From the IMG/VR virus record IMGVR_UViG_2974637922_000001, positions 96,001-160,000 of that record: a stretch of 64,000 nucleotides of DNA; one strand, given 5' to 3'. This stretch comes from a virus (taxonomy: Duplodnaviria > Caudoviricetes). Positions 7,289 through 42,300 of the stretch are shown here, one piece after another. The position numbers and the translations under genes are program-made. Below the pieces are notes generated by a model. That model ran no database searches. It was not told the origin of the DNA and saw only the letters and a program-made list of their open reading frames with translations. Position 1 is the first letter of the stretch. Each line of letters begins with the position of its first letter.

Positions 7289-8752
7289 ATGTCATCTGAC
7301 TTGACTATAACCAAAGTTAATGAAGTATATTTAAAAGTAGATTGTGACCCTCATATTCAGTATGAGTTGAGGGATGCTTTCTGCTTTGAAGTTCCTGGTG
7401 CTAAATTCCATCCGTCATACAGAAAGAAGTTCTGGGATGGAAATATTCACCTGTTCTCACCACAGACTAGACAACTATACGTAGGTCTATTGGATAGACT
7501 GATTGCCTTCTGTGATCAGTATGGGTATACGTATGCCTTTAAAGATAATAAGTTCTATGGTCTCCCATATGAGATTAACGAGAACATCTCCCCAGAAGGG
7601 GTTACAGACTGGGTGAAGTCTATTACCAGTTATAAACCCCGTGACTACCAGTTGCATGGTATCTACGCCGCTCTAAGGTCCAATAGGAAGTTGATTGTAT
7701 CTCCTACTGCATCTGGTAAGTCATTAATGATCTATGCCTTGGTGGCATACTACACACAGAAACACGAAAATATATTGATTGTTGTTCCTACTACATCTCT
7801 AGTGGAACAGATGTATAAGGATTTTGCAGACTACGGGTTTGATGTGGGAACGAACTGCCATAAGATATACGCTGGTAGAGAAAACACAACAGATAAACAA
7901 GTAACTATTACAACCTGGCAGTCTATCTACAAGTTACCTAAGACATACTTTCAGAAGTATAGTGTAGTGATTGGGGATGAAGCACACAACTTTAAGTCTA
8001 AGTCTCTAGTATCCATTATGAGTAAGTTGTGTGATGCAAAGTATAGATATGGGTTCACAGGTACTTTAGACGGGTCACAGACCCATAAGTGGGTGTTAGA
8101 GGGGTTGTTTGGTCCTTCATACAATACCATCAGAACAAAAGAGTTGATGGAGGCAGGTCATGTTGCTAAACTAGACATCAAAGTTCTTCTACTAAAACAT
8201 GATGAACAAATCTTTCCAAGATTTGAGGATGAAATCCAATATCTAATTGGACATGAGAAGAGAAACAAGTTTATCAGTAACTTATCTTTAGATCTAAAAG
8301 GTAACACTCTAGTTCTCTTTGCTAGGGTGGAGAAACACGGAGAGGTCCTCTACAATCTAATAAATAGTAAGGCAGAAGAGGGTAGAAACGTCTTCTTCGT
8401 TCATGGTGGTGTTGATGTAGAGTCCAGAGAACAGGTACGAACTATTACTGAGAGGGAGAACAATGCTATTATCATTGCCTCTTATGGAGTTTATAGTACG
8501 GGTATTAACATTAAAAACCTACACAACGTTATCTTTGCTTCCCCATCTAAGTCCAGGATCAGGAACCTGCAATCGATTGGTAGGGTACTGAGAAAGGGAA
8601 CAAATAAAGATAAGGCAATGTTATATGACATTGCTGATGACTGCACAAAAGGATCAAGAAGAAACTACACACTTAATCATCTTATAGAGAGGATCAAGAT
8701 TTACAACAATGAAAAGTTCAATTATGACATAGTAAATATCAATCTAAGGTAA
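7289..8752 (+). CDS. uvsW: SF2 helicase UvsW
   Basis: SPTASGKS, DEAH, GFTGT, QSIGRVLR. Confidence 0.97.
   Translation: MSSDLTITKVNEVYLKVDCDPHIQYELRDAFCFEVPGAKFHPSYRKKFWDGNIHLFSPQTRQLYVGLLDRLIAFCDQYGYTYAFKDNKFYGLPYEINENISPEGVTDWVKSITSYKPRDYQLHGIYAALRSNRKLIVSPTASGKSLMIYALVAYYTQKHENILIVVPTTSLVEQMYKDFADYGFDVGTNCHKIYAGRENTTDKQVTITTWQSIYKLPKTYFQKYSVVIGDEAHNFKSKSLVSIMSKLCDAKYRYGFTGTLDGSQTHKWVLEGLFGPSYNTIRTKELMEAGHVAKLDIKVLLLKHDEQIFPRFEDEIQYLIGHEKRNKFISNLSLDLKGNTLVLFARVEKHGEVLYNLINSKAEEGRNVFFVHGGVDVESREQVRTITERENNAIIIASYGVYSTGINIKNLHNVIFASPSKSRIRNLQSIGRVLRKGTNKDKAMLYDIADDCTKGSRRNYTLNHLIERIKIYNNEKFNYDIVNINLR
8359..8366 (+). promoter_or_regulatory. Possible late promoter inside uvsW
   Basis: AATAAATA overlapping the codons for L-I-N-S. 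Confidence 0.4.
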
Positions 8753-31304: not shown

Positions 31305-31830
31305 ATCATTTTACGGAGAAATACTCAACTCGGATGCTACTGGGCATCTGTATTCGTATGCCCAAAGTATTCAAGACTGGCAAACCATAAACCAAGACTA
31401 CATGGGTAAGAAATACCAGTCTGTTATGGCTCATAAAGTCCCTAGGGGAAATGAGATTGAGAAGTATGTTGTCAGAACTTTTCTCACATTCAATAAGTTA
31501 TATTTCAACTACGATTTAGTAGGAACATTTGAAACACAGATTCTGAAATACAATGTGCATGATGGGTATGATTGGCACTGTGACTATGGTGTGAGTGAGA
31601 ATCCCAATGCAGTTAGGAAACTGAGTATGATTATTCAACTCAGTGATATGTGGGACTACAACGGTGCAAATGTATTCCTAAGGGACTGGCACAACCGAGA
31701 ACACATCCTAAGTAAGGAGTCTGGGTATGTTACCGTATTCGACTCTAGGTCCCCTCACAGGGTCTCTCCCCTAGCTATCGGAGAACGATACTCACTGGTA
31801 GCCTGGGCTCACGGTCCAGAGTGGAGATAA
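31297..31830 (+). CDS. 2OG-Fe(II) oxygenase
   Basis: YDWHCD, RKLSMIIQLS, HRVSP, RYSLVAW. Confidence 0.88.
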   Translation: MVESFYGEILNSDATGHLYSYAQSIQDWQTINQDYMGKKYQSVMAHKVPRGNEIEKYVVRTFLTFNKLYFNYDLVGTFETQILKYNVHDGYDWHCDYGVSENPNAVRKLSMIIQLSDMWDYNGANVFLRDWHNREHILSKESGYVTVFDSRSPHRVSPLAIGERYSLVAWAHGPEWR

Positions 31831-31855
31831 ATAAAATACAAAGAAATGGAAACAT

Positions 31856-32170
31856 ATGCTTTCTACACAATATCGTCTTCGCCTTGAGGCTATCTGCCGA
31901 AAGATTGCGAATAGTGAATCTGTGGATTTGAGTGACATGATCTGGGCAGACAAATTGGCAAAGAGCCATACTACTGCTAGAGACTGGTTACAGCAGGCAA
32001 GAAGACAATCAGCCCATCAAATTGAAGAAGGTACCATAGATGATTTTATGAATAGGATGGGTTTAGGTGATCCCGATCCGTCCAATCATAAGAAGGGATT
32101 TGATAGTGCCGATGATATTAAGGACTGGTTTCAACAGGATAAGCCCAAAGACTGGAGACAAAGAGACTAA
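31856..32170 (+). CDS. Conserved cyanophage hypothetical protein
   Basis: MLSTQYRLRLE..GLGDPDP..DWRQRD; GATAAATA at 31826. Confidence 0.7.
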   Translation: MLSTQYRLRLEAICRKIANSESVDLSDMIWADKLAKSHTTARDWLQQARRQSAHQIEEGTIDDFMNRMGLGDPDPSNHKKGFDSADDIKDWFQQDKPKDWRQRD

Positions 32171-32172
32171 CT

Positions 32173-32352
32173 ATGGCTAATAAAAACGACAAAGGCAATC
32201 ACCCAAGAGAAGAGGGTTGGTTCACCGAAAAGTTGAAGAGAAGACTCAGGAATGATCTCATACATCCTGAACATCTAGTTCCCATTCTTATTGAAGAGAA
32301 TGAGGCACTTAGAGCAGAGATTGCAACACTAAAAGCAATGCATAAATGGTAA
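32173..32352 (+). CDS. 59-aa hypothetical (not in ORF track)
   Basis: Fills the gap; C-terminal coiled coil EENEALRAEIATLK. Confidence 0.55.
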   Translation: MANKNDKGNHPREEGWFTEKLKRRLRNDLIHPEHLVPILIEENEALRAEIATLKAMHKW

Positions 32353-32353
32353 A

Positions 32354-33655
32354 ATGGCAGCATTAAGTTCCACTTCCCCAGGACAACTAGGTAAGTATGT
32401 CATCCCCACAGTCCAGAAACTAAATGATGCGATGAAACGCAGAACTAGTCTTGGTAGGGGGAGTGGTAAGTCTTATACCATTAAGAATACCCCTGCGAAT
32501 GTGGCAGCTATCAAGGAGTTCTCTCGTATTGGTAGCTCCCCCAAGTCACAGAAAGAAGCACTTGCTATTAGTCTGCAGACCACTGATACTAAAGTTCCTA
32601 CTATTACTATCGGCAGTATTGATAAACCTAATATCAAATACAACCTTGGAGATATGTCCGAGGCTGTAGTTGGCGCTGCTATTGCTGCCAGGTTTATCTA
32701 CAAGAATAGAAGTATTACGACTTCAAATGTTTATGGTGTTCTATATGGAATGCCACCATCATCTAACTACCCAGGGAAGAAGGGAAAATATACAGAGAAG
32801 ACATTCCAGTCAGTTAATGAAAATAAGAAGGTTACAGATCAAGTTAAGGTGTATATCTCCTTAGCTGAGGTTAATATGGCTGCTGTGATGGATAGATCCA
32901 ATAAGGATCTTATTCTTCCTTATGTTCGTTCTGCAGTCAGATATGCCAATAGTACTACTGTTAAGAAGTGGTCCAAACTACTTTATGAGAACAATAGATC
33001 AGACAAGATTGATGTAATGTCTGATGGTCTGGGAGGACAAACCACAACTAAAGTGGATGTATATGTAAAAGTTAATGATGAGAAAGTAAATATTAATGTG
33101 TCACTGAAGGCTGGTGATGTCAAACAGTTTGGTCAGGTCTCTGGTATTGAGTTTGAGAAACAAACTAAACTATGGGAAACCTCCTTTGGTTTTGGTAGTG
33201 AGATTAAGAGTCTAGAGTCAAAGTATAACCAGTTGATCTCAGATAAATCAACAGTCCCACAGGCTGTAACTATGGTGTATCAAGAGGTGGCTAACCTTTT
33301 TAATCAAGGTATTAAGAGAGGTGATGCTGGTATGATAAGGAAATTTGCCAACTCCATTAAGTATTTCGCTACACTAAATGAAGACAATGTAACCCTACTA
33401 CAGGTGGGTAATGACGCAGCAAAGCTCTATTCGTTTGATGATATATACCAAGGAATAGAAAACATGCAACTGAACGCTTCTATTACTATGGGTAAGAGTG
33501 GTCTTCCAACCTTACTAATAAACGAGACTGCTAGTGGGCAACCCCTCATTCAGTATCGTGTGAAGCAGGAGTTCAAACCCGATGGGTCTCCATACATCAG
33601 AAACTATGTGGAGAAGCAAACTGTTCTAGGGAAACTTATTGGTGAAAACCTCTAG
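32354..33655 (+). CDS. Putative PD-(D/E)xK restriction-endonuclease-like protein
   Basis: NLGDMSEA helix ... KVDVYV ... NVSLK; adjacent to an MTase. Confidence 0.55.
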   Translation: MAALSSTSPGQLGKYVIPTVQKLNDAMKRRTSLGRGSGKSYTIKNTPANVAAIKEFSRIGSSPKSQKEALAISLQTTDTKVPTITIGSIDKPNIKYNLGDMSEAVVGAAIAARFIYKNRSITTSNVYGVLYGMPPSSNYPGKKGKYTEKTFQSVNENKKVTDQVKVYISLAEVNMAAVMDRSNKDLILPYVRSAVRYANSTTVKKWSKLLYENNRSDKIDVMSDGLGGQTTTKVDVYVKVNDEKVNINVSLKAGDVKQFGQVSGIEFEKQTKLWETSFGFGSEIKSLESKYNQLISDKSTVPQAVTMVYQEVANLFNQGIKRGDAGMIRKFANSIKYFATLNEDNVTLLQVGNDAAKLYSFDDIYQGIENMQLNASITMGKSGLPTLLINETASGQPLIQYRVKQEFKPDGSPYIRNYVEKQTVLGKLIGENL

Positions 33656-33658
33656 GTG

Positions 33659-33667
33659 TGTTATAAT
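33659..33667 (+). promoter_or_regulatory. Extended -10 promoter for MTase 1
   Basis: TGTTATAAT 23 nt before the ATG. Confidence 0.65.
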
Positions 33668-33690
33668 ACCATTGTAGAGATTTCTATTTT

Positions 33691-34590
33691 ATGAAGGAAC
33701 GCAGAAAGTATCCAACCGTATTGAGGTATCCAGGCGGTAAGTCTAGGATTATCTACTATTTGTTTAGGGAAAATATGATCCCTAAGAATGTCAAGGAATA
33801 CCGTGAGGGTTTCCTAGGTGGGGGTTCTTGTGCTCTTGCGTTTTCTGTGATGTACCCAAACACCCCAGTTTGGGTCAATGATCTTTACTATAATCTGTTT
33901 ATCTTCTGGACACAACTCCAGAAGAATCCAGATCCACTTATCAATAGACTCCTAGAATTAAAGGACGAAGCCTGTGATGCATCAGGTACAGAAGAACTAG
34001 AGAAAAAGCATAGAAAACTCTACACAGATATGCGTGATCTCATTAACACCTCTAGTGATCACCTTGATATTGCAACCTCCTTCTACATTCTAAACCGATC
34101 TAGTTTCGGTGGATTCACTGAACAAAACAAGAATGCCTTCATCCGAGACTCATACAAGAATACTATTTTCTCTCAGAGTAAAATCCGTAAGTTGGCTAAT
34201 ATCTCTGAGATTATCCAACCCTGGAGAATTACCAATACACACTACAAGGAACTAATGAGAGCTCCTGGTGATGATGTATTTGTGTTCCTAGACCCTCCAT
34301 ATCTAATCAAGGATATGTTGTATGGTAAGGACAAGGAGATGCACACTGGGTTCTCTCATGAAGAGTTTGTGAGTGAGTGTAAAGGTTCTACACATGACTG
34401 GATGATTACCTACAATGAACACGAATGGTTGAGATCCCAGTTCGCTGACTATCATATGGAGTCTTTCGAGTTCCGTTATAGTCTCGCCCACAGGGAAGAG
34501 AATGGCAACAAGAAAGAAGAACTCCTCATAATGAACTATGAGATTCCTCGTGATATCCCAAACCCACTAGAGGTAGTTTTGTATGGATGA
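33691..34590 (+). CDS. dam: Dam-like N6-adenine DNA methyltransferase
   Basis: LRYPGGKS, EGFLGGGS, FLDPPY. Confidence 0.92.
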   Translation: MKERRKYPTVLRYPGGKSRIIYYLFRENMIPKNVKEYREGFLGGGSCALAFSVMYPNTPVWVNDLYYNLFIFWTQLQKNPDPLINRLLELKDEACDASGTEELEKKHRKLYTDMRDLINTSSDHLDIATSFYILNRSSFGGFTEQNKNAFIRDSYKNTIFSQSKIRKLANISEIIQPWRITNTHYKELMRAPGDDVFVFLDPPYLIKDMLYGKDKEMHTGFSHEEFVSECKGSTHDWMITYNEHEWLRSQFADYHMESFEFRYSLAHREENGNKKEELLIMNYEIPRDIPNPLEVVLYG

Positions 34591-35038
34591 TCTAGAGCTA
34601 GAGTATCATCTTTATCTGGATGGAAACCCTATTCAGACACTGAAGGATGACGCTAGTACAATGACTTTAGCCAAGAAGAGAGTTATCGGTCCTTACATTC
34701 GTAGAGCTGAATCTTTTATTAAAATATCAGAACCATTTAGGGAACTACTTCGTCTTGATGATGGTAAGGATAAACTTCTAGATGCAATAGGTGTTGTCTG
34801 GGCACACTACTTTGAACATAAGATTAACAAGAAGTATATGGTTATCCCTAAGGATGCATCTCTTGATTTTATGGAATACTTTGGTACTATGGCACAGAAG
34901 GATAAGTTTCCAGATGATAAATATATTAAGAAAGCTCAGCGTATTATTCTCTCCCACGAAAAGAGTATTGACGCTTTCATTAAGGCTTTTCATAGTATCC
35001 GTTTAGCCAACGACAAATATCTCTCCCTGAAGAAATGA
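34583..35038 (+). CDS. Hypothetical protein
   Basis: Overlaps both MTase 1 and the 980-aa gene. Confidence 0.65.
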   Translation: MDDLELEYHLYLDGNPIQTLKDDASTMTLAKKRVIGPYIRRAESFIKISEPFRELLRLDDGKDKLLDAIGVVWAHYFEHKINKKYMVIPKDASLDFMEYFGTMAQKDKFPDDKYIKKAQRIILSHEKSIDAFIKAFHSIRLANDKYLSLKK

Positions 35039-37977
35039 TCACACCGAAGTCCCTACTATCATTCCTATCTGAAGCCGCTGATTCTGAGGCTGCACAACAG
35101 GCTAAGGAGATGGGTTTAACCTCTGCCGGTTATGGTAACTGGAGAGATAGGACGGGCAATGTTGTTGCCAAAACTGTAGATGGTCAGTTGGTAATGATTG
35201 ATGCCAAGGCAGATCCTATGGCTAGACCAGAGGCGCCTGAGAAGGAAATGCCACCTGAAGAGGAGGAGGAGCCTCAGTTTGTAGAACCAGATCCAGATAT
35301 GGTTGAGAAAGTAGCTAAGGGTCTTTCTGGTGGTAGATATGATATTGCATCAGCACAAAGGAAGAAAGAGTTACTGGCTTCTGCTAGACAGGTATTAATC
35401 AATAAACAGATCCAAGACGCTCAGATGCAGGCTGACGCTGAGGCTCAGGCAGCGGCACAAAACCCACCAGAACCCACTCCAGAGGAGTTGGCACAACAAC
35501 AGGCGGATATGGAACTACAGCAACAGAATGCTGTAATGGATACCGAACTGAAGGCACAGAGTGTTGAGAACGGGAAACTGGACCTTCAGATGAAGAAGGA
35601 CCAGATGAAGCAACAGAAGGAGGCAGAGAAAGAAGCCAAGGCTATGGATAAGTTAGCCAAGAAAGCAGAGGCACAGAAACAAGCAGAAGCCGACGCACAA
35701 GCTCAAGCTGAAGCGGAATCTAGTAATGTTGAGGCAGAACCAGAACCAAAAGCTCCAGCTGAGTTGGATCAATTATTATCGGATATTCGTAGTGGTGACG
35801 AGACCAAACTAGCAAAGTCTCTTCAGAAACTACAGAAGAAAGAAGGTCCTAAAAAGCCAAAACCAAAGGCACCAAAACTAGATATCGAACAGGTAAAGGC
35901 TCAAGCAGTAGAAGACGCTAAGCCTGGTGATCAACAGACTGCATACTTTGGTCCTCCTCCTGGAAATACAGGTGAGGAGATGAATAATGTAGTTAATCTT
36001 ATTGAACAAGTATCTACAACTAATAAGGGCACAGTTCCAAAGTATGCTCAGAAGATGCTCGATAAGTTCAATGACCCTGTTGCTAAGAAGCAGTTTGGTG
36101 AGTATTTGGAGTTTAGTGCTCAGGAAGAAGCTAGAATCGAAGAGAACTGGAAGAAACTATCCAAAGTTAAAAATATTGATGATGCGAAGAGATTACTTAC
36201 CGAAGGTATGGGTTTAATTGAAGGTCCAAAGGGACTGGAGTTTAGACCAGTATCACCTGGTATGCGTGAGTTCATGTCTATGGCGAAGAGTAATACTCAG
36301 AAAGGTTATCGTGGACTTCAGTATAGGGAAGTCGCCCACTTAGCAAACCCAGAAGTTCAGGAAAGAATTCTCAATACTGATAGACAGCAAGTTAACGCTG
36401 ATACTATTATTAACCCTGATGTAACTTGGGAGATGGCTACCGAACTTTATGACTCTATGTCTGGAAAGGTGAAGGGTGTATTTAACAAACTAGGAGGTGC
36501 TGACGCTATGCGTGAGGCTTTCGATCCCAAAGTTCCTGTAGTATATCTAAAAGATAGTTCTGGTAAGGCTACTGGACTTACTAATATTGATGTTATGGCA
36601 AATACTGATCCTGAGACATATAAAGAACAGTTTGCTAAAACAGGTGGCAGAAACCGAGGTATCTTTATCATGCAGAAGTTGATGGCTACTGGTGGTATGG
36701 ATCAACTCACAGGTCTTCCTAACTTCCTAACTCCTGAGAGTGGAACTATCGATCACCTAGAGGGTAGGTCACAGAAGATGGCGGACAAGTCCATCCGTAA
36801 GGACTCTCCTATCAATATGGCTATTGTTTCTAACTCAGTTAACTGGGCAAAGGCAGACGCTGCTGATCCTGAAACTGGAGCAAAGGATACTATTCCTGGT
36901 TTGGTTGCTCTAGGTCAATCTTACAGTGGAGGTATTAACCCAGCTGCCAAGAAAATCATAGAACAGGGTGGTGAAGAATCCATGAAACAAGCTTGGATGA
37001 CTCAGAGAATTTCGGGTATTGATATCAGAACACAGGCAGACGCCGAGAAGAAAGATACAGAACCTGATAGTCTTGATACTTTTATGGACGTACCTATGGG
37101 TAAATCCGGTGGTGTTGTTAATAGACTATCGGACGCTACTTCTTTTGGATATGATCTTCGTAATATGACTATGTATTACCCACGTGCGGATCATAAAAAT
37201 AAGTATGACCAAAACTCTTGGTCTGGTAACCCCAGAAAAGGTTCAAACCGAGGTTACTATGCAGTTCTAGACGGTTGGAGAAAGTCTGTTCTATCTGGTG
37301 CCATGTATGGTCCTGAGATTAGTAATTTGGTAGATAGTCATAGGGAAGAACTTACCAACGAAGTCCTCAAAAAGAGGGGAGATGAACCAAGACTAAGATC
37401 TGAAACTGAAGTTGATGAAGAACTCAGAAAGTTTAAGAAGAACTATGTTAAGTATCAGTACTCTATGCCTATGAGAGCCATTGCTTCTGCTTGGACAACT
37501 GGTATGATATCAAGACAGGATTATATCAAAGAGCTAAAGAGACTTAGTGATAAGGCTCTTGGTCAATTAGGTCCTGGTGGTGAGGTACATAGAGCTAGAT
37601 TGGTAAAGGAAAGGGACGAGTCTCTTAATCAATATCTATCTGAAATTGAAACTCATCAAGGTGTTGACGAACTATCTGAGGTTGACGAGGAGTGGTTGAT
37701 GGAGAATATTGGAAGCAATCCTGTTATGAATATGGCTTTATCTGAGTTTGGTAGAGGAGTTTTACGTAAGAAGTATCCAGCTGTTCTAGACGCGTTTGAC
37801 GCGGGTATTGCTGACGGCAGTGTTTCTTCAGGTAACTCTTTGACTGTTGGAAATAAAAAGAACGCTAAGAAACTTGTAGATCCGTCACAAGGGAAGTTCT
37901 TTGAGCACTTTGACTTGACAAACCAAGAAAACAGTGGTATGATGGATACGTTAAAGAGGTTGAGGAAAACCCGTTAA
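35035..37977 (+). CDS. 980-aa putative internal head protein with HNH-like domain
   Basis: SFLSE|A leader; shared GL..G.G.W.D..GN.VA.TV.G domain; coiled coil; GGMDQLTG..TIDH..N..N..K. Confidence 0.6.
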   Translation: MITPKSLLSFLSEAADSEAAQQAKEMGLTSAGYGNWRDRTGNVVAKTVDGQLVMIDAKADPMARPEAPEKEMPPEEEEEPQFVEPDPDMVEKVAKGLSGGRYDIASAQRKKELLASARQVLINKQIQDAQMQADAEAQAAAQNPPEPTPEELAQQQADMELQQQNAVMDTELKAQSVENGKLDLQMKKDQMKQQKEAEKEAKAMDKLAKKAEAQKQAEADAQAQAEAESSNVEAEPEPKAPAELDQLLSDIRSGDETKLAKSLQKLQKKEGPKKPKPKAPKLDIEQVKAQAVEDAKPGDQQTAYFGPPPGNTGEEMNNVVNLIEQVSTTNKGTVPKYAQKMLDKFNDPVAKKQFGEYLEFSAQEEARIEENWKKLSKVKNIDDAKRLLTEGMGLIEGPKGLEFRPVSPGMREFMSMAKSNTQKGYRGLQYREVAHLANPEVQERILNTDRQQVNADTIINPDVTWEMATELYDSMSGKVKGVFNKLGGADAMREAFDPKVPVVYLKDSSGKATGLTNIDVMANTDPETYKEQFAKTGGRNRGIFIMQKLMATGGMDQLTGLPNFLTPESGTIDHLEGRSQKMADKSIRKDSPINMAIVSNSVNWAKADAADPETGAKDTIPGLVALGQSYSGGINPAAKKIIEQGGEESMKQAWMTQRISGIDIRTQADAEKKDTEPDSLDTFMDVPMGKSGGVVNRLSDATSFGYDLRNMTMYYPRADHKNKYDQNSWSGNPRKGSNRGYYAVLDGWRKSVLSGAMYGPEISNLVDSHREELTNEVLKKRGDEPRLRSETEVDEELRKFKKNYVKYQYSMPMRAIASAWTTGMISRQDYIKELKRLSDKALGQLGPGGEVHRARLVKERDESLNQYLSEIETHQGVDELSEVDEEWLMENIGSNPVMNMALSEFGRGVLRKKYPAVLDAFDAGIADGSVSSGNSLTVGNKKNAKKLVDPSQGKFFEHFDLTNQENSGMMDTLKRLRKTR
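37915..37943 (+). promoter_or_regulatory. Sigma70 promoter for MTase 2 and the sigma factor
   Basis: TTGACA-17nt-TATGAT with extended TG. Confidence 0.75.
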
Positions 37978-38858
37978 TGGCAAAACCATTATTCAAATGG
38001 ACTGGGGGTAAGGGGCGACTCCTTCAAAAGTACACAGACCTAAACTTTTTCCCCGACTCTAGTCAGTTTGATACTTTCGTTGATTTGTTCTTTGGTGGGG
38101 GTGCTGTGACTATGTGGGTTGCTGAAAAGTATCCAGATAAGAAACTTATTATTAACGATCTCAATACTGAGATGATGAATCTGTATATTCAGATTCGAGA
38201 TAACTGGGAAGAATTCAGGGAACACTACCTGCGCATCAGTGGGGTGTTTATTGAAACCCCTCAGGATAAAAGGAAAGCTTTATATAATTGTTATAAGAAA
38301 CGATATGCCTGGAACTATAAGTGGTTGAGTGAAGCTGAGATAGCTGCTAACCTTTTGGTTATGTTAAAGACAAACTTTAACGGTATCTGGCAGGGATATA
38401 TTATGTACGGCGGTAGATACTCTACACCCCCTGGACATATCAATTACAAACCCACACTCTTTGATATCAATAAAGTAGAACAGTTCCGAGACGTTCTTTG
38501 TAGGTCTACAATATATAACCGTTCTTTTGAAGACGTACCTATCCCTGAGAACTCTTGGGTATTTGCTGATCCTCCATATCGTGACACCAAGAAGATGTAC
38601 TCCGACCAGTTCGACGATGAACTGCAGAGTAAATTAGCTAACTTTTTAACTTCCAATAGCTGCTTATATGCGGAGTCTAATAAGGAAACCGGTGACGGTT
38701 TTTGGCAGGCACATTATCCAGAAGAACACATTAAGTTTCTAGATCATAAGTATACCTGTGGTCACGGTGGTGCAGTAAACCCTGTAACTGAAGTTCTTAT
38801 AAAGAACTATGGGAATAATATCCCACAACCAACTACCCTTGATTCCTTTTTTAACTGA
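37977..38858 (+). CDS. Second D12-class N6-adenine DNA methyltransferase
   Basis: PLFKWTGGK, FVDLFFGGGA, INDLN, ADPPY. Confidence 0.9.
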   Translation: MAKPLFKWTGGKGRLLQKYTDLNFFPDSSQFDTFVDLFFGGGAVTMWVAEKYPDKKLIINDLNTEMMNLYIQIRDNWEEFREHYLRISGVFIETPQDKRKALYNCYKKRYAWNYKWLSEAEIAANLLVMLKTNFNGIWQGYIMYGGRYSTPPGHINYKPTLFDINKVEQFRDVLCRSTIYNRSFEDVPIPENSWVFADPPYRDTKKMYSDQFDDELQSKLANFLTSNSCLYAESNKETGDGFWQAHYPEEHIKFLDHKYTCGHGGAVNPVTEVLIKNYGNNIPQPTTLDSFFN

Positions 38859-38860
38859 TT

Positions 38861-39553
38861 ATGCAAAAGAAAAACCGTATCTCCCACGAAGAAGAAATCA
38901 AACTATGTCGCCAAGCACAACTACATGATCATACATCCAAGTATGCTATGACTAAAATGGTTAACGCTAATATTGGGTTGGTTGAAAAACTTGCCAACAA
39001 ACTCTACATCAAGAATGATCAATACTCTTTTGATGACCTATACCAAGAGGGTGTATTTGGTCTTATCAGAGGAGTGAATAAGTTTGATCCTAGTGTTGGG
39101 TGTAGGTTTTCCACATATTCATACTACTGGATCTATAGTTATATCATGAGGTATTGTGAGAATAACCTAGGTAAGATCCGTATTCCCACTCACCTCCGTG
39201 AGAAGATGAGGAAACAGAAAGATAATAAGGTAGAGTTGGACAGACTAAAGTCCAAAGTCCCGTCAGTAGTATCATTAAATACAATAGTGGGTGAATCACT
39301 ATCCTTGGATAATGTAGTTACATACACCGAGAATATCTCATTTGATGATGAGATGGAACATGTTTTGGTTGTTATGGATGAGGTTTTGGATGAAAGAGAA
39401 CACCAGGTTCTCTGTAGTAGGTTTGGTATTGGTGGCGAGAAGCCACTATCCCAGAGAGAGTGTGCTAAACTACACAATGTTACCCATGGTGCTATCTATT
39501 TGATTGAGAAGAAATCAATCAAGAAAATCAAACACCATATGGGGTATAAATAA
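38861..39553 (+). CDS. Sigma70-family sigma factor (regions 1.2-4)
   Basis: ANIGLV, DLYQEGVFGLIRGVNKFDP, RFSTYSYYWI, IRIP, C-terminal HTH. Confidence 0.9.
   Translation: MQKKNRISHEEEIKLCRQAQLHDHTSKYAMTKMVNANIGLVEKLANKLYIKNDQYSFDDLYQEGVFGLIRGVNKFDPSVGCRFSTYSYYWIYSYIMRYCENNLGKIRIPTHLREKMRKQKDNKVELDRLKSKVPSVVSLNTIVGESLSLDNVVTYTENISFDDEMEHVLVVMDEVLDEREHQVLCSRFGIGGEKPLSQRECAKLHNVTHGAIYLIEKKSIKKIKHHMGYK
39545..39552 (+). promoter_or_regulatory. Late promoter TATAAATA
   Basis: Exact consensus 17 nt before ATG 39570. Confidence 0.8.
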
Positions 39554-39569
39554 TACTATAGTAGATTCT

Positions 39570-40784
39570 ATGACGATGAGATCGTTTCTAACATTCCTAA
39601 CTGAGGCTCGTTCTCGTGCATCTAAAAGAGCCAAAGAGTTGGGACTCACTGGCAACGGTCATGGTGGATGGGAAGATAGCGAAGGTAACCTAGTCGCTAT
39701 GACTGTGAAGGGTGATCTGGAGTTTGTGAAGGGAAGAGAACCCAAAGAGGAAGAAGAACCCGATGAAAAGACTTCTGCCCCTGAAGAGGAACCAACATCC
39801 AACAAAGCGCCTGGGGTAGATCCAGAAAATACAGATACCCCACAACAGGAACAACCAGCACCTGTTCCCAAAGATAAAGGTATTCTAACTGTTGCTTTCG
39901 GTAGGTTTAACCCTCCTACTATTGGGCATGAGAAGTTAATTAATACGGTAGCATCATATTCCGAGGATGGAGATTATATTATTGTTCCTTCCCGTAGTGA
40001 AGATAAGAAGAAGAATCCTCTAGATGTTGATACAAAAGTCAGCATCATGAGGCAGATGTATCCACAACATGCCGAGAAGATTGTTAACGATCCACATAAC
40101 AGAACCATCTTTGATGTTATGCGTAAGGCGCATAATGATGGTTACGCTGGTATTAGGATTGTTGGTGGTGGAGATAGAGTTAAGGAATATGAGAAGTTAG
40201 CCAACGCATATAACGGATCTACCTATCAGTTTGATGAAATTGATATAGTAAACGCTGGTGACAGGGATCCAGATGCGGAAGGTGCGGAAGGTATGTCTGC
40301 CTCCAAGATGAGAAAGGCGGCAGCTGATAATGACTTTGCTTCTTTTAGAAAGGGAATGCCAAAGACTCTCAGTAACGACCAGATGGTTTCTATCTACACT
40401 CAGGTTCAGAAGTCTATGGGTGTAACACCTAAGGAAGCTGTAATTGAAAACTGGAAAGTTGCTCCTAGACTGTATCCACAGGAACTGAGAGAGGCTTATA
40501 TCCAAAACGAAATCTATAATATTGGTGATACTGTCAGTCATGACACCACTGGTATGGTAGGTAAGATCGTAAGAAAGGGAACCAATCACCTCATTTGTGT
40601 AACAGAAAGTGAAGAGATGTTTAAGACCTGGACACAGGATGTGAGTCCTGCCGACCTAAAACCACAACCAGCAATCTCTACTCCAAAGGAGAGGGAAGTT
40701 GGAACAGATTCCCTCAGATCTTTCCTTCAGAGAATCACTCCAGGGGAGAAAGAGCAATCCTTTATAAATAAACATAAGAAATAA
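39570..40784 (+). CDS. Cytidyltransferase-like nucleotidyltransferase, probable virion protein
   Basis: FGRFNPPTIGH, KNPL, GMSASKMR; FLTE|A leader. Confidence 0.85.
   Translation: MTMRSFLTFLTEARSRASKRAKELGLTGNGHGGWEDSEGNLVAMTVKGDLEFVKGREPKEEEEPDEKTSAPEEEPTSNKAPGVDPENTDTPQQEQPAPVPKDKGILTVAFGRFNPPTIGHEKLINTVASYSEDGDYIIVPSRSEDKKKNPLDVDTKVSIMRQMYPQHAEKIVNDPHNRTIFDVMRKAHNDGYAGIRIVGGGDRVKEYEKLANAYNGSTYQFDEIDIVNAGDRDPDAEGAEGMSASKMRKAAADNDFASFRKGMPKTLSNDQMVSIYTQVQKSMGVTPKEAVIENWKVAPRLYPQELREAYIQNEIYNIGDTVSHDTTGMVGKIVRKGTNHLICVTESEEMFKTWTQDVSPADLKPQPAISTPKEREVGTDSLRSFLQRITPGEKEQSFINKHKK
40763..40770 (+). promoter_or_regulatory. Late promoter TATAAATA
   Basis: Exact consensus upstream of 40804. Confidence 0.75.
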
Positions 40785-40803: not shown

Positions 40804-42300
40804 ATGGATTTCAACGTAACCGAAGCTGTCGAGCTAATCGTATTGTTAGCCGAGACAGAACAGCTAACACTACAAGATGCTCTACAGGAGTTCCTATCAG
40901 AGACCGAATTGGACTCTGAAACGGCATCCCATCTAAAGGGTGCCCTCTTTGAGAAATATTCACTCAGGGAGATGGCTACTGACGCCGTAACAAACGCTAT
41001 GATGAAAGTGTTTGTTAGTCGTCCAGTAGTAGAAGAGGAAGTGGAGACTCCTGATGGTAATCTCTATTTTGTAGAGGTTGAACTAGAGGAGGAAGTTCTA
41101 GAAGGTTATCTAACCCTAGAAGAAATCCAGAATATGAGAGTGGATGCTGATGTTCTATCCGTTAAGTTAGTTGATGAAGGTGTTCGTGACACTGACGCCG
41201 AGAAAGGAACAGAGGAAAGAAAGAAACGCCTTGAGAAGAAGCGTGGAATGAAGTTGGACGACCATCCTCAGTATCTGGAAACAGATATGAAGAAGCGTCA
41301 GGAGAATAACGAGAAGGCTCGTAAGGATATGGATAAAGTGAAGGGTCAGAAGAACCCCCACTTCGAAGAGTATGATATTTCTGAAGGTCGCAAAGAAGGT
41401 GAGTCTTCTAAAGATTACGCCGATAGAATGACTAAGAAGTATTCTGGTGGTAAGTCTAAGTCCTATGATCCCATGAAGGATAAGAACTTCGACCATGACA
41501 AGGCAGAAAGAACCCGTGGTTCTATGGAAGAAGGTCTAGACGCCGTAGGTGGCGAAGACGCTGACATTAATAACGATAATAAGGTTGATAAGACTGATAA
41601 GTATCTACACAATCGTCGTAAGGCTATCGGAAAGGCGATGAAGAAGGAATCAGCTTGGGCTGAGTATCTAAATCGTAGAGGAATCTCTGAGGAAGTATTC
41701 TCTGAAGGTGACCTAATTGATGCAGGTCGTAAGAATGAGGGAGAAAGAAGGGGAAAAAAGATTACCGGGGAGGGTGTTGATAACTCCTCCTCTGTGAAGT
41801 TGATGCCTCGTATCGCTGAAGCTGCTATTATCACTGAGAAGTCAGAGAGTAAGTCACAACAGCGTCTCTTTGGTATGGTAAGAGCAGCTCAGAAGGGTGA
41901 GAAACCCGCCTCTGGTAAGGTTGCTGAACTAGCTTCTAAGGTTGGTAAGAAAGACGTTCTAGACTTCGCTAAGACAAAACACAAGGGTTTGAAAGAGAAC
42001 TGTTGTGATAAGTGTGGCACTCCTGATTGTACTTGTGATGAGAAGCCCAAGGCTAAGAAAAAGAAAGCTAAACTAGATGAAGCAGGGATGCCTATTCTAG
42101 AGTATTCTAGAAACAACGCTGAAGGTCCTACACCTGAAATGATTGATCCTCCAAAGGATGAAGAAGGTAAGAAGGGTGTAAAGAACCCTAAAGGTAAGGC
42201 TAAGAGACCTGGTGCAGGTGACAGAAGACCTAACGACGGTGGTTCCGAACTACCATTCGATATGGGAACCGTACCTGGTGGCGGCGGTTGTGGTTGCTAA
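40804..42300 (+). CDS. Charged modular late protein, probable internal head protein
   Basis: Many hydrophobic-x-E junctions; DINNDNKVD module; KSESKSQQRLFGMV module. Confidence 0.65.
   Translation: MDFNVTEAVELIVLLAETEQLTLQDALQEFLSETELDSETASHLKGALFEKYSLREMATDAVTNAMMKVFVSRPVVEEEVETPDGNLYFVEVELEEEVLEGYLTLEEIQNMRVDADVLSVKLVDEGVRDTDAEKGTEERKKRLEKKRGMKLDDHPQYLETDMKKRQENNEKARKDMDKVKGQKNPHFEEYDISEGRKEGESSKDYADRMTKKYSGGKSKSYDPMKDKNFDHDKAERTRGSMEEGLDAVGGEDADINNDNKVDKTDKYLHNRRKAIGKAMKKESAWAEYLNRRGISEEVFSEGDLIDAGRKNEGERRGKKITGEGVDNSSSVKLMPRIAEAAIITEKSESKSQQRLFGMVRAAQKGEKPASGKVAELASKVGKKDVLDFAKTKHKGLKENCCDKCGTPDCTCDEKPKAKKKKAKLDEAGMPILEYSRNNAEGPTPEMIDPPKDEEGKKGVKNPKGKAKRPGAGDRRPNDGGSELPFDMGTVPGGGGCGC

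Follow-up and report, generated by a model that had tools for sequence, protein, structure and literature searches.

Nuclease-like and methylase genes in a probable mosaic region of a T4-like cyanophage, with evidence for a packaged HNH protein

Background

The systems closest to the locus described here are the internal head proteins of phage T4, the packaged restriction enzymes of chloroviruses, the MspI/HinP1I family of type IIP restriction endonucleases, and the HNH nuclease domain of Cas9. In T4, the determinants of capsid targeting and processing are an aromatic residue at each of the positions 4 and 7, leucine or isoleucine at position 8, and glutamate at position 10 (PMC9026906); the N-termini of IPIII and IPII, which we read from the T4 genome, are of the form MKTYQEFIAE|A. 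Chloroviruses package restriction enzymes in the virion and leave the methylases unpackaged (Agarkova et al. 2006, reviewed in PMC7019647). Mass spectrometry of S-CREM2 virions detected, with 28 peptides, ORF12, which is a homolog of the 980-residue protein that is our main subject, and likewise the protein kinase ORF14, the SAM lyase ORF6, and ORF13; the authors caution that abundant proteins may co-purify with virions (PMC10665884).

In this article, we analyze part of a 64,000-nucleotide stretch of phage DNA (referred to as the window; all coordinates are window positions unless stated otherwise). Its source is a relative of the Synechococcus phage ACG-2014f and hence a T4-like cyanophage. 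An earlier sequence-only reading described two nuclease genes, each followed by a methyltransferase gene, and proposed that both pairs are restriction-modification (R-M) systems in which early self-methylation is combined with late-made nucleases. Our ORF check found all four of the ORFs as that reading had given them, namely the nuclease-like NUC1, the methylase MT1, the large HNH protein BIG980, and the methylase MT2.

Results

The BIG980 ORF (35035-37977, + strand, 980 aa) consists of three parts. The N-terminal module (35035..35205, +) contains at residues about 5-14 the sequence KSLLSFLSE|A, which matches the T4 capsid targeting sequence and is followed by a conserved GLxSxGxGxWxD...VAKT motif. 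A low-complexity linker rich in E, K, Q, A, and P (35206..35931, +) leads to a C-terminal cargo module of ~680 aa (35932..37977, +) that holds the HNH core. Members of the BIG980 and cytidylyltransferase families start with (M)K-S-F-x-x-F-L-x-E-A, retaining the determinants at positions 4, 7, 8, and 10, and BIG980 and the cytidylyltransferase encoded further downstream both have the T4-type arrangement of about 10 N-terminal residues ending in a gp21 site (L/I-x-E). The same genome encodes a gp21-type prohead protease (Peptidase_S77, 4.3e-34; genome positions 97856-98308, window ~1856-2308). Moreover, the S-CREM2 proteins ORF12, ORF14, ORF6, and ORF13 all share the N-terminal signature of the BIG980 family. 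The first ~270 residues of BIG980 are 86% shared with the corresponding ACG-2014f protein and the ACG-2014f isolates diverge from BIG980 beyond that point, that is, the cargo is swapped; the N-terminal half of an Eco57I-like methylase was sought in the other reading frames of the ACG-2014f locus and none was found.

The BIG980 family resembles the T4 internal head proteins (IPI, IPII, IPIII, and Alt) in having an N-terminal decapeptide on the T4 pattern in a genome with a gp21-type protease, and in that one leader is attached to diverse, fast-evolving cargoes, with late promoter motifs and with homologs found in virions. It differs from the T4 internal proteins, which are small and basic, in that BIG980 carries the ~680-aa HNH enzyme module and a ~250-aa low-complexity linker, in that the leader is followed by a conserved motif of ~40 aa, and in that sister proteins carry kinase, NMNAT-like, or SAM-lyase domains. 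Among the papers searched, "capsid targeting sequence" and "cyanophage" occur together only in a general T4 review.

The HNH core of BIG980 lies at about 36742-36858 (+; residues 570-608) and includes D573, H574, N594, N603, and K606. D573, H574, N603, and K606 never vary across the homolog alignment and N594 hardly does, and the structural model places a beta-beta-alpha element at strands 570-574 and 595-599 followed by a helix at 600-608. The D-H pair, the structural Asn, and the metal-binding Asn/His position that characterize the HNH (beta-beta-alpha-metal) superfamily are thus all found. Cas9 HNH domains match residues 165-332 of the model with Z 4.0 and 16% identity, the ESM Atlas neighbours of BIG980 are HNH families, and the depositors of S-CREM2 annotated its homolog with the same Cas9-type HNH. 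Conserved residues and the model together favour a Cas9-like HNH domain, in line with the initial description of this ORF as HNH-like. The likeness to Cas9 is confined to the beta-beta-alpha core with D-H, N, and N-x-x-K; unlike Cas9, BIG980 lacks any further Cas9 domain and any CRISPR context. Pfam and NCBIfam gave no HNH match even when E was relaxed to 10 or 0.1, which indicates divergence and does not exclude the assignment, and neither PADLOC nor Foldseek against the PDB returned a match. Searches with P0133 and P0134 matched the same nine phage records only, and IMG/VR scans with two alignments yielded no confirmed locus.

MT2 (37977..38858, +; FFGGG, DPPY) is the second, divergent DPPY methylase of the initial description and matches the Pfam D12 MTase family with 2.5e-23 (PF02086 score 83.5 bits vs a cut-off of 22). 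The corresponding values for MT1 (33691..34590, +; FLGGG, DPPY), which follows NUC1 and had been called Dam-like, are 4e-24 and 86.1 bits against the same cut-off of 22. Both proteins thus exceed the PF02086 cut-off and have motif I (FxGxG) and motif IV (DPPY) of the D12/Dam class, to which we assign both as N6-adenine methylases; the two are just 21% identical to each other.

The two pairs differ in how far they are conserved as neighbours. In 9/9 phage records and in 4/4 informative metagenome contigs, the HNH protein is followed, at a distance of 20 bp to 1.6 kb, by an MT2 ortholog. Its identity is 77-85% in all loci with the HNH cargo protein, and the adjacency is kept where the HNH proteins are down to 26-27% identical. 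MT2 is also kept, at 77% identity, in 9 ACG-2014f isolates whose cargo protein is without the HNH part. For the proposed second R-M pair the adjacency is thus conserved in one direction: HNH cargo always has MT2 downstream, and MT2 occurs without HNH in the nine isolates. All cases come from related lineages, so that the adjacency may be inherited gene order.

NUC1 (32354..33655, +; 433 aa) is a PD-(D/E)xK nuclease-like protein with a predicted MspI/HinP1I-like fold, as indicated by its motif, its AlphaFold model, and its homologs. The motif E103...K233-V-D235...S250-L-K252, already recognized as PD-(D/E)xK-like in the initial description, is borne out by 77 homologs (32-100% identity) in which E103, D235, S250, and K252 are invariant. 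In the AlphaFold model (pLDDT 87.8) D235 is at the beginning of strand 236-240 and strand 243-253 holds S250 and K252, so that the core alpha-beta fold, the acidic residue, and (D/E/S)xK on adjacent strands that mark the superfamily are present. The best structural matches among 48,161 chains are MspI (Z 7.1, 201 residues) and HinP1I (Z 6.6, 204 residues), covering most of each enzyme, with ThaI, the Cas4-like ACE1, Dna2, and HhaI ranked lower; Z of about 7 is, according to the tool's own note, in a range often reached by unrelated models. Foldseek gave only a weak HinP1I match against the PDB and only uncharacterised cyanophage proteins among viral models, NUC1 has no Pfam, NCBIfam, or PADLOC match, and PDB sequence searches found nothing. 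Like these type IIP enzymes, NUC1 has its E...D...(S)xK residues on the expected helix and strands. Unlike them, it has an extra N-terminal domain within its 433 aa, no sequence-level match, and no cognate methylase, and its conservation and spread go far beyond what is usual for restriction enzymes: it is widespread on marine myovirus contigs and occurs in hundreds of marine phage sequences. Homology of NUC1 to the S-CREM2 SAM lyase and to its frequent neighbour DUF6267 was considered and rejected on negative hhalign comparisons. The intact and invariant catalytic residues of both NUC1 and BIG980 argue for real nuclease activity.

MT1 is a member of the Dam family that is common in cyanomyoviruses and is found in 384 phage records, usually adjoining the clamp loader gene and nearly always without NUC1; NUC1 is found in 12 phage records. 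None of 80 viral contigs (0/80) has an MT1- or MT2-like gene within 8 kb of the NUC1 homolog, no DNA methylase family was matched among 73 neighbour ORFs of NUC1 from 18 diverse loci, and a 162-kb record with a NUC1 homolog that CheckV rates as 100% complete (G002) has no D12, N6_N4, C5, or T1-Dam methylase. NUC1 and MT1 therefore assort independently and are not inherited jointly, and because of this the claim that they form an R-M pair fails by the condition that the earlier reading had itself set.

As to the genes around the two pairs, two small ORFs (h104 and h59, of 104 and 59 aa; 31856..32352, +) lie directly upstream of NUC1, and the 104-aa ORF also precedes NUC1 in loci L003-L005 and L007. 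The gene h151 (34583..35038, +; 151 aa), which has no Pfam, NCBIfam, or PADLOC match, lies in relatives between NUC1 and the capsid-targeted cytidylyltransferase. Directly after MT2 comes a gene for a phage sigma-70-family factor (38861..39553, +), in an order that is also found in ACG-2014f and in metagenome contig L092. It is followed by a cytidylyltransferase/NMNAT-like protein (39570..40784, +) that has a late motif at 39546 and the capsid-targeting N-terminus MTMRSFLTFLTE|A. A possible counterpart in S-CREM2, the cytidylyltransferase ORF154, was detected in virions (PMC10665884). In none of the 80 IMG/VR loci is NUC1 followed by an MT1 or MT2 homolog; what comes after it is h151 and/or the cytidylyltransferase, the latter being its conserved downstream neighbour in other phages. 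The S-CREM2 ORF11, labelled "EcoRI-like", has no homolog in the window's genome.

The promoter motifs fall into two types. The late-type motif GATAAATA occurs at 31826..31833 (+), 23 nt ahead of the h104-h59-NUC1 run, and again inside h151 at 34916-34923 (+), 112 nt upstream of BIG980. In L003, L010, L015, L027, and L042 an equivalent (A/C)TAAATA motif precedes NUC1 or its operon by 20-43 nt, and late-type motifs lie 22-29 nt upstream of units of a small ORF and an HNH protein in other phages. A candidate sigma70-like promoter with an extended -10, TTGGTG-17-TATAAT (TGTTATAAT; 33639..33668, +), spans the NUC1 stop codon ahead of MT1; its -35 element falls short of what the sigma70 scan lists. 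The second, TTGACA-17-TATGAT with a TG extension (37915..37943, +), is located inside the 3' end of BIG980 and drives MT2 and probably also the sigma factor gene. A sigma70-type promoter is found 54-65 nt before the MT2 start codon in 10/10 related loci, in five of which (L083, L084, L085, L091, and L094) it lies in or beside a terminator-like hairpin. By count, neither type is enriched (35 sigma70-like sites found by the scan vs 30 +/- 6 expected, and 15 ATAAATA found vs 15 expected); the recurrence of the MT2 promoter in all ten loci and of late-type motifs upstream of nuclease units nevertheless does support them as promoter motifs. The sequence-only reading was thus right in assigning promoter motifs of its own to each methylase and late-type motifs to the nucleases, and the motif types fit early methylases and late nucleases, whereas its explanation of that timing by R-M is less favoured than packaging.

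Discussion

The most likely reading of BIG980 is that of a packaged and injected nuclease, because its N-terminus matches T4-type targeting and its S-CREM2 homolog is found in virions. It would be a T4-style internal head protein composed of a targeting sequence with a prohead-protease site (FLSE|A), a flexible linker, and an HNH cargo, made late, loaded into the prohead and, as we infer, injected along with the phage DNA when the next host is infected. Capsid packaging via a T4-like targeting sequence explains the timing of BIG980 better than does late cutting by an R-M system. Regarding the region as a whole, we consider it moderately probable that it is a mosaic and not two R-M cassettes. 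The order of NUC1, h151, and the cytidylyltransferase in the 80 loci and the methylase-free neighbourhoods of NUC1 suggest an older run of NUC1, h151, the capsid-targeted cytidylyltransferase, and h498, into which MT1 and a block of BIG980, MT2, and the sigma factor gene would have been inserted in the window's lineage. NUC1 would then be a conserved PD-(D/E)xK-type nuclease with an intact site, probably late, that works without a dedicated methylase and for which a role in host DNA breakdown or DNA processing can be inferred; MT1 would be a cyanophage methylase of the usual Dam family that has a promoter to itself; and MT2 would be a fixed neighbour of the cargo slot, transcribed separately from a host-type early promoter. 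Several observations weigh against this combined explanation: detection in virions concerns the S-CREM2 homologs, the phage of the window being known from its genes; the targeting motif is short, about 10 residues, and in BIG980 starts at residue 5 and not at residue 2; the structural match to HNH, taken over the entire model, is weak (Z 4.0) and is joined by no Pfam HNH hit; the NUC1 matches have Z values that unrelated models often reach; the late motif nearest to BIG980 is 112 nt away within another gene; and the unbroken adjacency of the HNH protein and MT2 would also fit a real functional dependence.

The last of these points could be taken further. In one alternative, limited to the second pair, early MT2 would methylate all progeny DNA and the late HNH protein would be packaged, so that in the next infection it cuts unmethylated host or competitor DNA and spares the methylated phage genome. 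HNH cargo is never found without MT2 downstream (9 records, 4/4 contigs), even at 26-27% HNH identity, and the early and the late promoter motifs are each conserved as separate elements; of the non-structural virion proteins named for S-CREM2, six in all, the HNH homolog is one and ORF8, the MT2 homolog, is not (PMC10665884), and chloroviruses offer a precedent (PMC7019647). As in chloroviruses, the nuclease is likely packaged, the adjacent methylase gene is not reported in the particle, and the two could serve rapid breakdown of host DNA; it is plausible by this analogy that MT2 protects phage DNA from the BIG980 nuclease. The chloroviruses differ in being eukaryotic algal viruses with classical type II enzymes and proven cognate sites, whereas here the virus is a tailed phage and the HNH domain sits within a large cargo protein, MT2 is found without the nuclease, and the link to methylation is a proposed one. 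We consider this alternative unlikely, given the nine isolates that keep MT2 without the HNH part, the lack of any sign of joint divergence (MT2 stays at 77-85% identity while the HNH protein drops to 26%), and the few related cyanophage lineages involved, in which the gene order may simply be inherited.

Possible, if still rather unlikely, is that the methylases are orphan genes with an anti-restriction role, shielding phage DNA from host restriction enzymes with no functional tie to the nuclease-like proteins, which would have other roles, for example in recombination, packaging, or structure. Methylases of the Dam family are frequent in cyanophages and mostly occur alone (our own count; PMC12801897), and MT2 survives replacement of the cargo. 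It also adjoins a SAM lyase in S-H34 and S-CREM2, and SAM lyases have a known anti-restriction function. Such a separation leaves the constant adjacency of the HNH cargo and MT2 unexplained and sits poorly with catalytic residues that are intact and invariant in both nucleases. The full proposal of two R-M pairs with early methylation and late cutting is very improbable: both nuclease folds and both methylases appear to be real and each nuclease is followed by a methylase with a promoter-like site, but the 0/80 NUC1 loci with an adjacent MT1 or MT2 homolog, the 73 neighbour ORFs without a methylase, the record G002, rated complete, with NUC1 and none of the four methylase families, and the 384 MT1-family records, nearly all of them without NUC1, count against it.

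Returning to the packaged BIG980, a broader and more doubtful possibility is that a T4-type leader loads a changing set of enzymes (HNH nuclease, protein kinase, NMNAT-like transferase, SAM lyase) into the cyanophage head and that the HNH cargo with early MT2 is a virion-delivered, R-M-like weapon. If so, the HNH cargo and its always-adjacent MT2 would shred unmethylated host DNA on injection, which would be, to our knowledge, the first natural case of this kind in a tailed phage. As far as we know, it is not settled by what means T4-like cyanophages shut down host DNA and break it down yet leave intact their own genome, in which cytosine is unmodified, and a capsid-delivered nuclease with a conserved early methylase beside it would make this question testable. 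NUC1, as a highly conserved, methylase-free, restriction-enzyme-like nuclease, is a separate lead. The shared targeting leader would also explain why kinases, NMNAT-like enzymes, and SAM lyases recur in cyanophage virion proteomes, and it would allow injected proteins to be predicted from marine phage genomes by a simple rule on sequence. In the window itself, h498 ("gp186"; 40804..42300, +) has, besides a late motif at 40764, the internal motif LQEFLSE|T at residues 26-33, and may be a third packaged protein.

Region and methylases

The analyzed window derives from a 197-kb IMG/VR record (~86% complete), and the + strand carries all genes of the region. Synechococcus phage ACG-2014f (Kyanoviridae, Atlauavirus) is represented by nine isolates that match the region at 91–93% identity over only 64–65% of it, because the middle differs. 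The methylases MT1 (33691–34590) and MT2 (37977–38858), previously described from the sequence as a Dam-like enzyme and a second, divergent DPPY enzyme, do belong clearly to the D12/Dam class and carry motifs I and IV; their sequences share only 21% identity, and the genome encodes no other D12 methylase. Over the whole window GGCC is strongly depleted (13 observed vs 62 expected, O/E 0.21), GTAC (O/E 0.47) and GCGC (0.50) are also low, and GATC is near normal (0.79).

A conserved putative nuclease without a methylase partner

The ORF preceding MT1 (NUC1, 32354–33655, 433 aa) gave no matches in Pfam, NCBIfam or PADLOC searches, and more than 440 clusters of its homologs were found in metagenomes. 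The AlphaFold model, obtained with 37 sequences as input, is confident (pLDDT 87.8). Exhaustive structural comparison of this model placed two restriction enzymes at the top, MspI first (Z 7.1, rmsd 4.4, 201/262 residues) and HinP1I next (Z 6.6, 204/241 residues; second rank with Foldseek), values of Z near 7 not being decisive on their own; ThaI, a Cas4-like nuclease, Dna2, HhaI and I-Ssp6803I followed at lower ranks. The recognition sites of MspI and HinP1I are CCGG and GCGC. Residues E103, D235 and S250-x-K252 are invariant across 77 homologs with identity down to 32%, as is the entire block SLKAGDVKQFGQ. The consistent family of structural hits, and an invariant motif that falls on the strands of the model where it should, make a PD-(D/E)xK nuclease the best reading of NUC1, and the motif noted in the sequence-only reading is thereby upheld, with an MspI/HinP1I-like fold.

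The proposal that NUC1 and MT1 form a nuclease-methylase pair is refuted by the criterion that the sequence-only reading itself set, independent assortment across genomes, as the two genes do not travel together. Eighty viral contigs encoding a NUC1 relative were searched with all window proteins, and in no case did a homolog of MT1 or MT2 lie within 8 kb. A cytidylyltransferase gene (window copy at 39570–40784, 5.9 kb downstream of NUC1) is found in about 45 of the 80, and several also carry h151 (ORF 34583–35038 of the window) and h498 ("gp186", 40804–42300) in unchanged order. Pfam families among 73 neighbor ORFs at 18 diverse NUC1 loci include DUF6267 (7), RNase H, DnaB-type helicase, cytidylyltransferase and others, and no DNA methylase family. 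A D12 methylase is present in only two of five long NUC1 records tested, 12 and 30 kb away from NUC1, and none of four DNA methylase families occurs in a NUC1-bearing record of 162 kb that is rated complete (G002). The MT1 family spans 384 phage records, usually adjoining the clamp loader gene, compared to 12 for NUC1. These neighborhood and co-occurrence results point to the ancestral order NUC1, h151, cytidylyltransferase, h498, and gene order indicates that MT1 is an insertion into it with its own promoter. NUC1 sits between gp41 and gp61 in the replication gene region and is conserved, independent of any methylase.

A ~408-aa DUF6267 protein adjoins NUC1 homologs in seven of the 18 diverse loci (L034, L048, L066, L077, L080, L036, L028); the window lacks this protein, which has no detectable relationship to NUC1.

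An HNH protein with a probable capsid targeting leader

The 980-aa ORF preceding MT2 (BIG980, 35035–37977) gave no protein-family matches, and exhaustive search with its last 680 residues found 26 representative relatives, among which D573-H574, N603 and K606 are invariant. The model (pLDDT 82) places these residues on two strands and one helix, Cas9 HNH domains align with exactly this part of it (Z 4.0, 16% identity), and the ESM Atlas neighbors of residues 440–660 are HNH families, which bears out the earlier description of the ORF as HNH-like.

The HNH module is present in nine phage records, including S-N03, S-H34, MA10, MA01, ME01 and MC09, all at 63% identity, and S-CREM2 at 27%, each with an MT2 ortholog (77–80% identical) 50 bp to 1.6 kb downstream of the HNH protein. 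Six metagenome contigs carry the module; in all four that extend far enough to show the next gene, MT2 (77–85% identical) directly follows the HNH protein (26–84% identity). The nine ACG-2014f isolates retain MT2 (77% identity), and their large protein is common to BIG980 only over the first ~270 residues, with a different C-terminus. In these records, contigs and isolates, the HNH part never occurs without MT2, yet MT2 also occurs without the HNH part. As judged from gene order, the pair is a conserved neighborhood. In the corresponding ACG-2014f slot (L001:8682–12255, L002:6682–10734), the large protein is followed by an ORF with an Eco57I-like NPPY methylase fragment; this ORF starts inside the N6-adenine methylase domain (NPPY, profile positions 73–171). 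The upstream half was not found in any frame, and the ORF could be either a remnant or part of a split gene.

The first ~55 residues of BIG980 recur on the cytidylyltransferase of the same genome, the only two copies genome-wide, and S-H34 and S-CREM2 carry them on protein kinases and on HNH proteins. The leader family begins (M)K-S-F-x-x-F-L-x-E-A; T4 ipIII and ipII, read from the T4 genome, both begin MKTYQEFIAE-A. This ten-residue T4 start is a capsid targeting sequence, with positions 4 and 7 serving targeting and positions 8 and 10 cleavage by the gp21 prohead protease (PMC9026906). The cyanophage leaders retain exactly positions 4, 7, 8 and 10, and a gp21-type protease is encoded in the genome. 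In published mass spectrometry data, the virions of S-CREM2 contained ORF12, the homolog of BIG980 (28 peptides), along with kinase ORF14, SAM lyase ORF6, ORF13 and also a cytidylyltransferase (PMC10665884). The leader is carried by S-CREM2 ORF12, ORF14, ORF6 (MKDFDSFLEE, L084:10504–11748) and ORF13 (MKDLHSFLTE, L084:5039–5275) and by S-H34 gp181 (MKELSKFLRE, L083:4841–5080), and is absent from the N-termini of MT1, MT2 and NUC1. Among relatives of the HNH module (P0133–P0150), the short N-terminal leaders are of at least three unrelated types (MKSF..FL.EA, M.LFSEWLK.EQG, MNNKSIFERL), each followed by a low-complexity Pro/Gln/Glu-rich linker.

The most economical reading is that BIG980 is a modular internal head protein, composed of leader, linker and enzyme cargo, that would enter the prohead and be injected. 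T4 is the textbook case of internal head proteins that bear a targeting sequence, virion-associated enzymes have been reported in cyanophages, and chloroviruses are known to package restriction enzymes; the connection among the three, a T4-type leader on large cyanophage enzyme cargoes, including an HNH nuclease by a conserved early methylase, appears to be undescribed in the literature searched. A late motif lies 34 nt ahead of the h498 gene, and the h498 protein, with an LQEFLSE-T at residues 26–33 that resembles the T4 targeting sequence, may be a third packaged protein.

A packaged nuclease beside the genome in the capsid needs self-protection of some form. Methylation of the phage DNA by MT2 is an obvious candidate, to which we would give a rather low probability. 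A precedent comes from chloroviruses, whose restriction enzymes are packaged and whose methylases are not (PMC7019647). Two observations speak against a strict dependence: MT2 persists where the HNH part has been replaced, and its divergence rate is very different from that of the HNH protein.

Promoters and timing

A head-packaged protein such as the one proposed for BIG980 requires late synthesis. Late-type (A/C)TAAATA motifs occur 22–29 nt upstream of units of a small ORF and the HNH protein in S-H34 and S-CREM2. In three contigs they precede the gene for the HNH protein, and six lineages have them 20–43 nt ahead of NUC1 or of the operon that contains it; NUC1 is probably made late. Most + strand ATAAATA sites of the window lie 12–61 nt before an ORF. 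The MT2 promoter, TTGAC(A/G)-17-TAnnnT, is found 54–65 nt ahead of the start codon in 10/10 loci examined, both where it is intergenic and where it lies inside the end of the upstream gene, the one exception being a weaker -10 (CATACT) in L084. Since the MT2 promoter and the late-type motifs recur across loci, the suggested split timing of early methylases and late nucleases holds at the motif level. The promoter overlaps a terminator-like hairpin in five loci, and MT2 is therefore a separate unit. The -35 hexamer forms part of the loop in a GGGGC-TTGAC-GCCCC hairpin with a T run behind it (L083:~8005–8040, L091, L094, L084), a single element that seems both to terminate the cargo gene and to act as promoter for the methylase gene.

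A sigma-70-family factor gene (38861–39553) follows MT2 after a 2-nt gap, with no promoter-like site of its own, and ACG-2014f and one of the four far-reaching metagenome contigs (L092) share this arrangement; for these reasons the promoter at 37915–37943 probably drives both genes.
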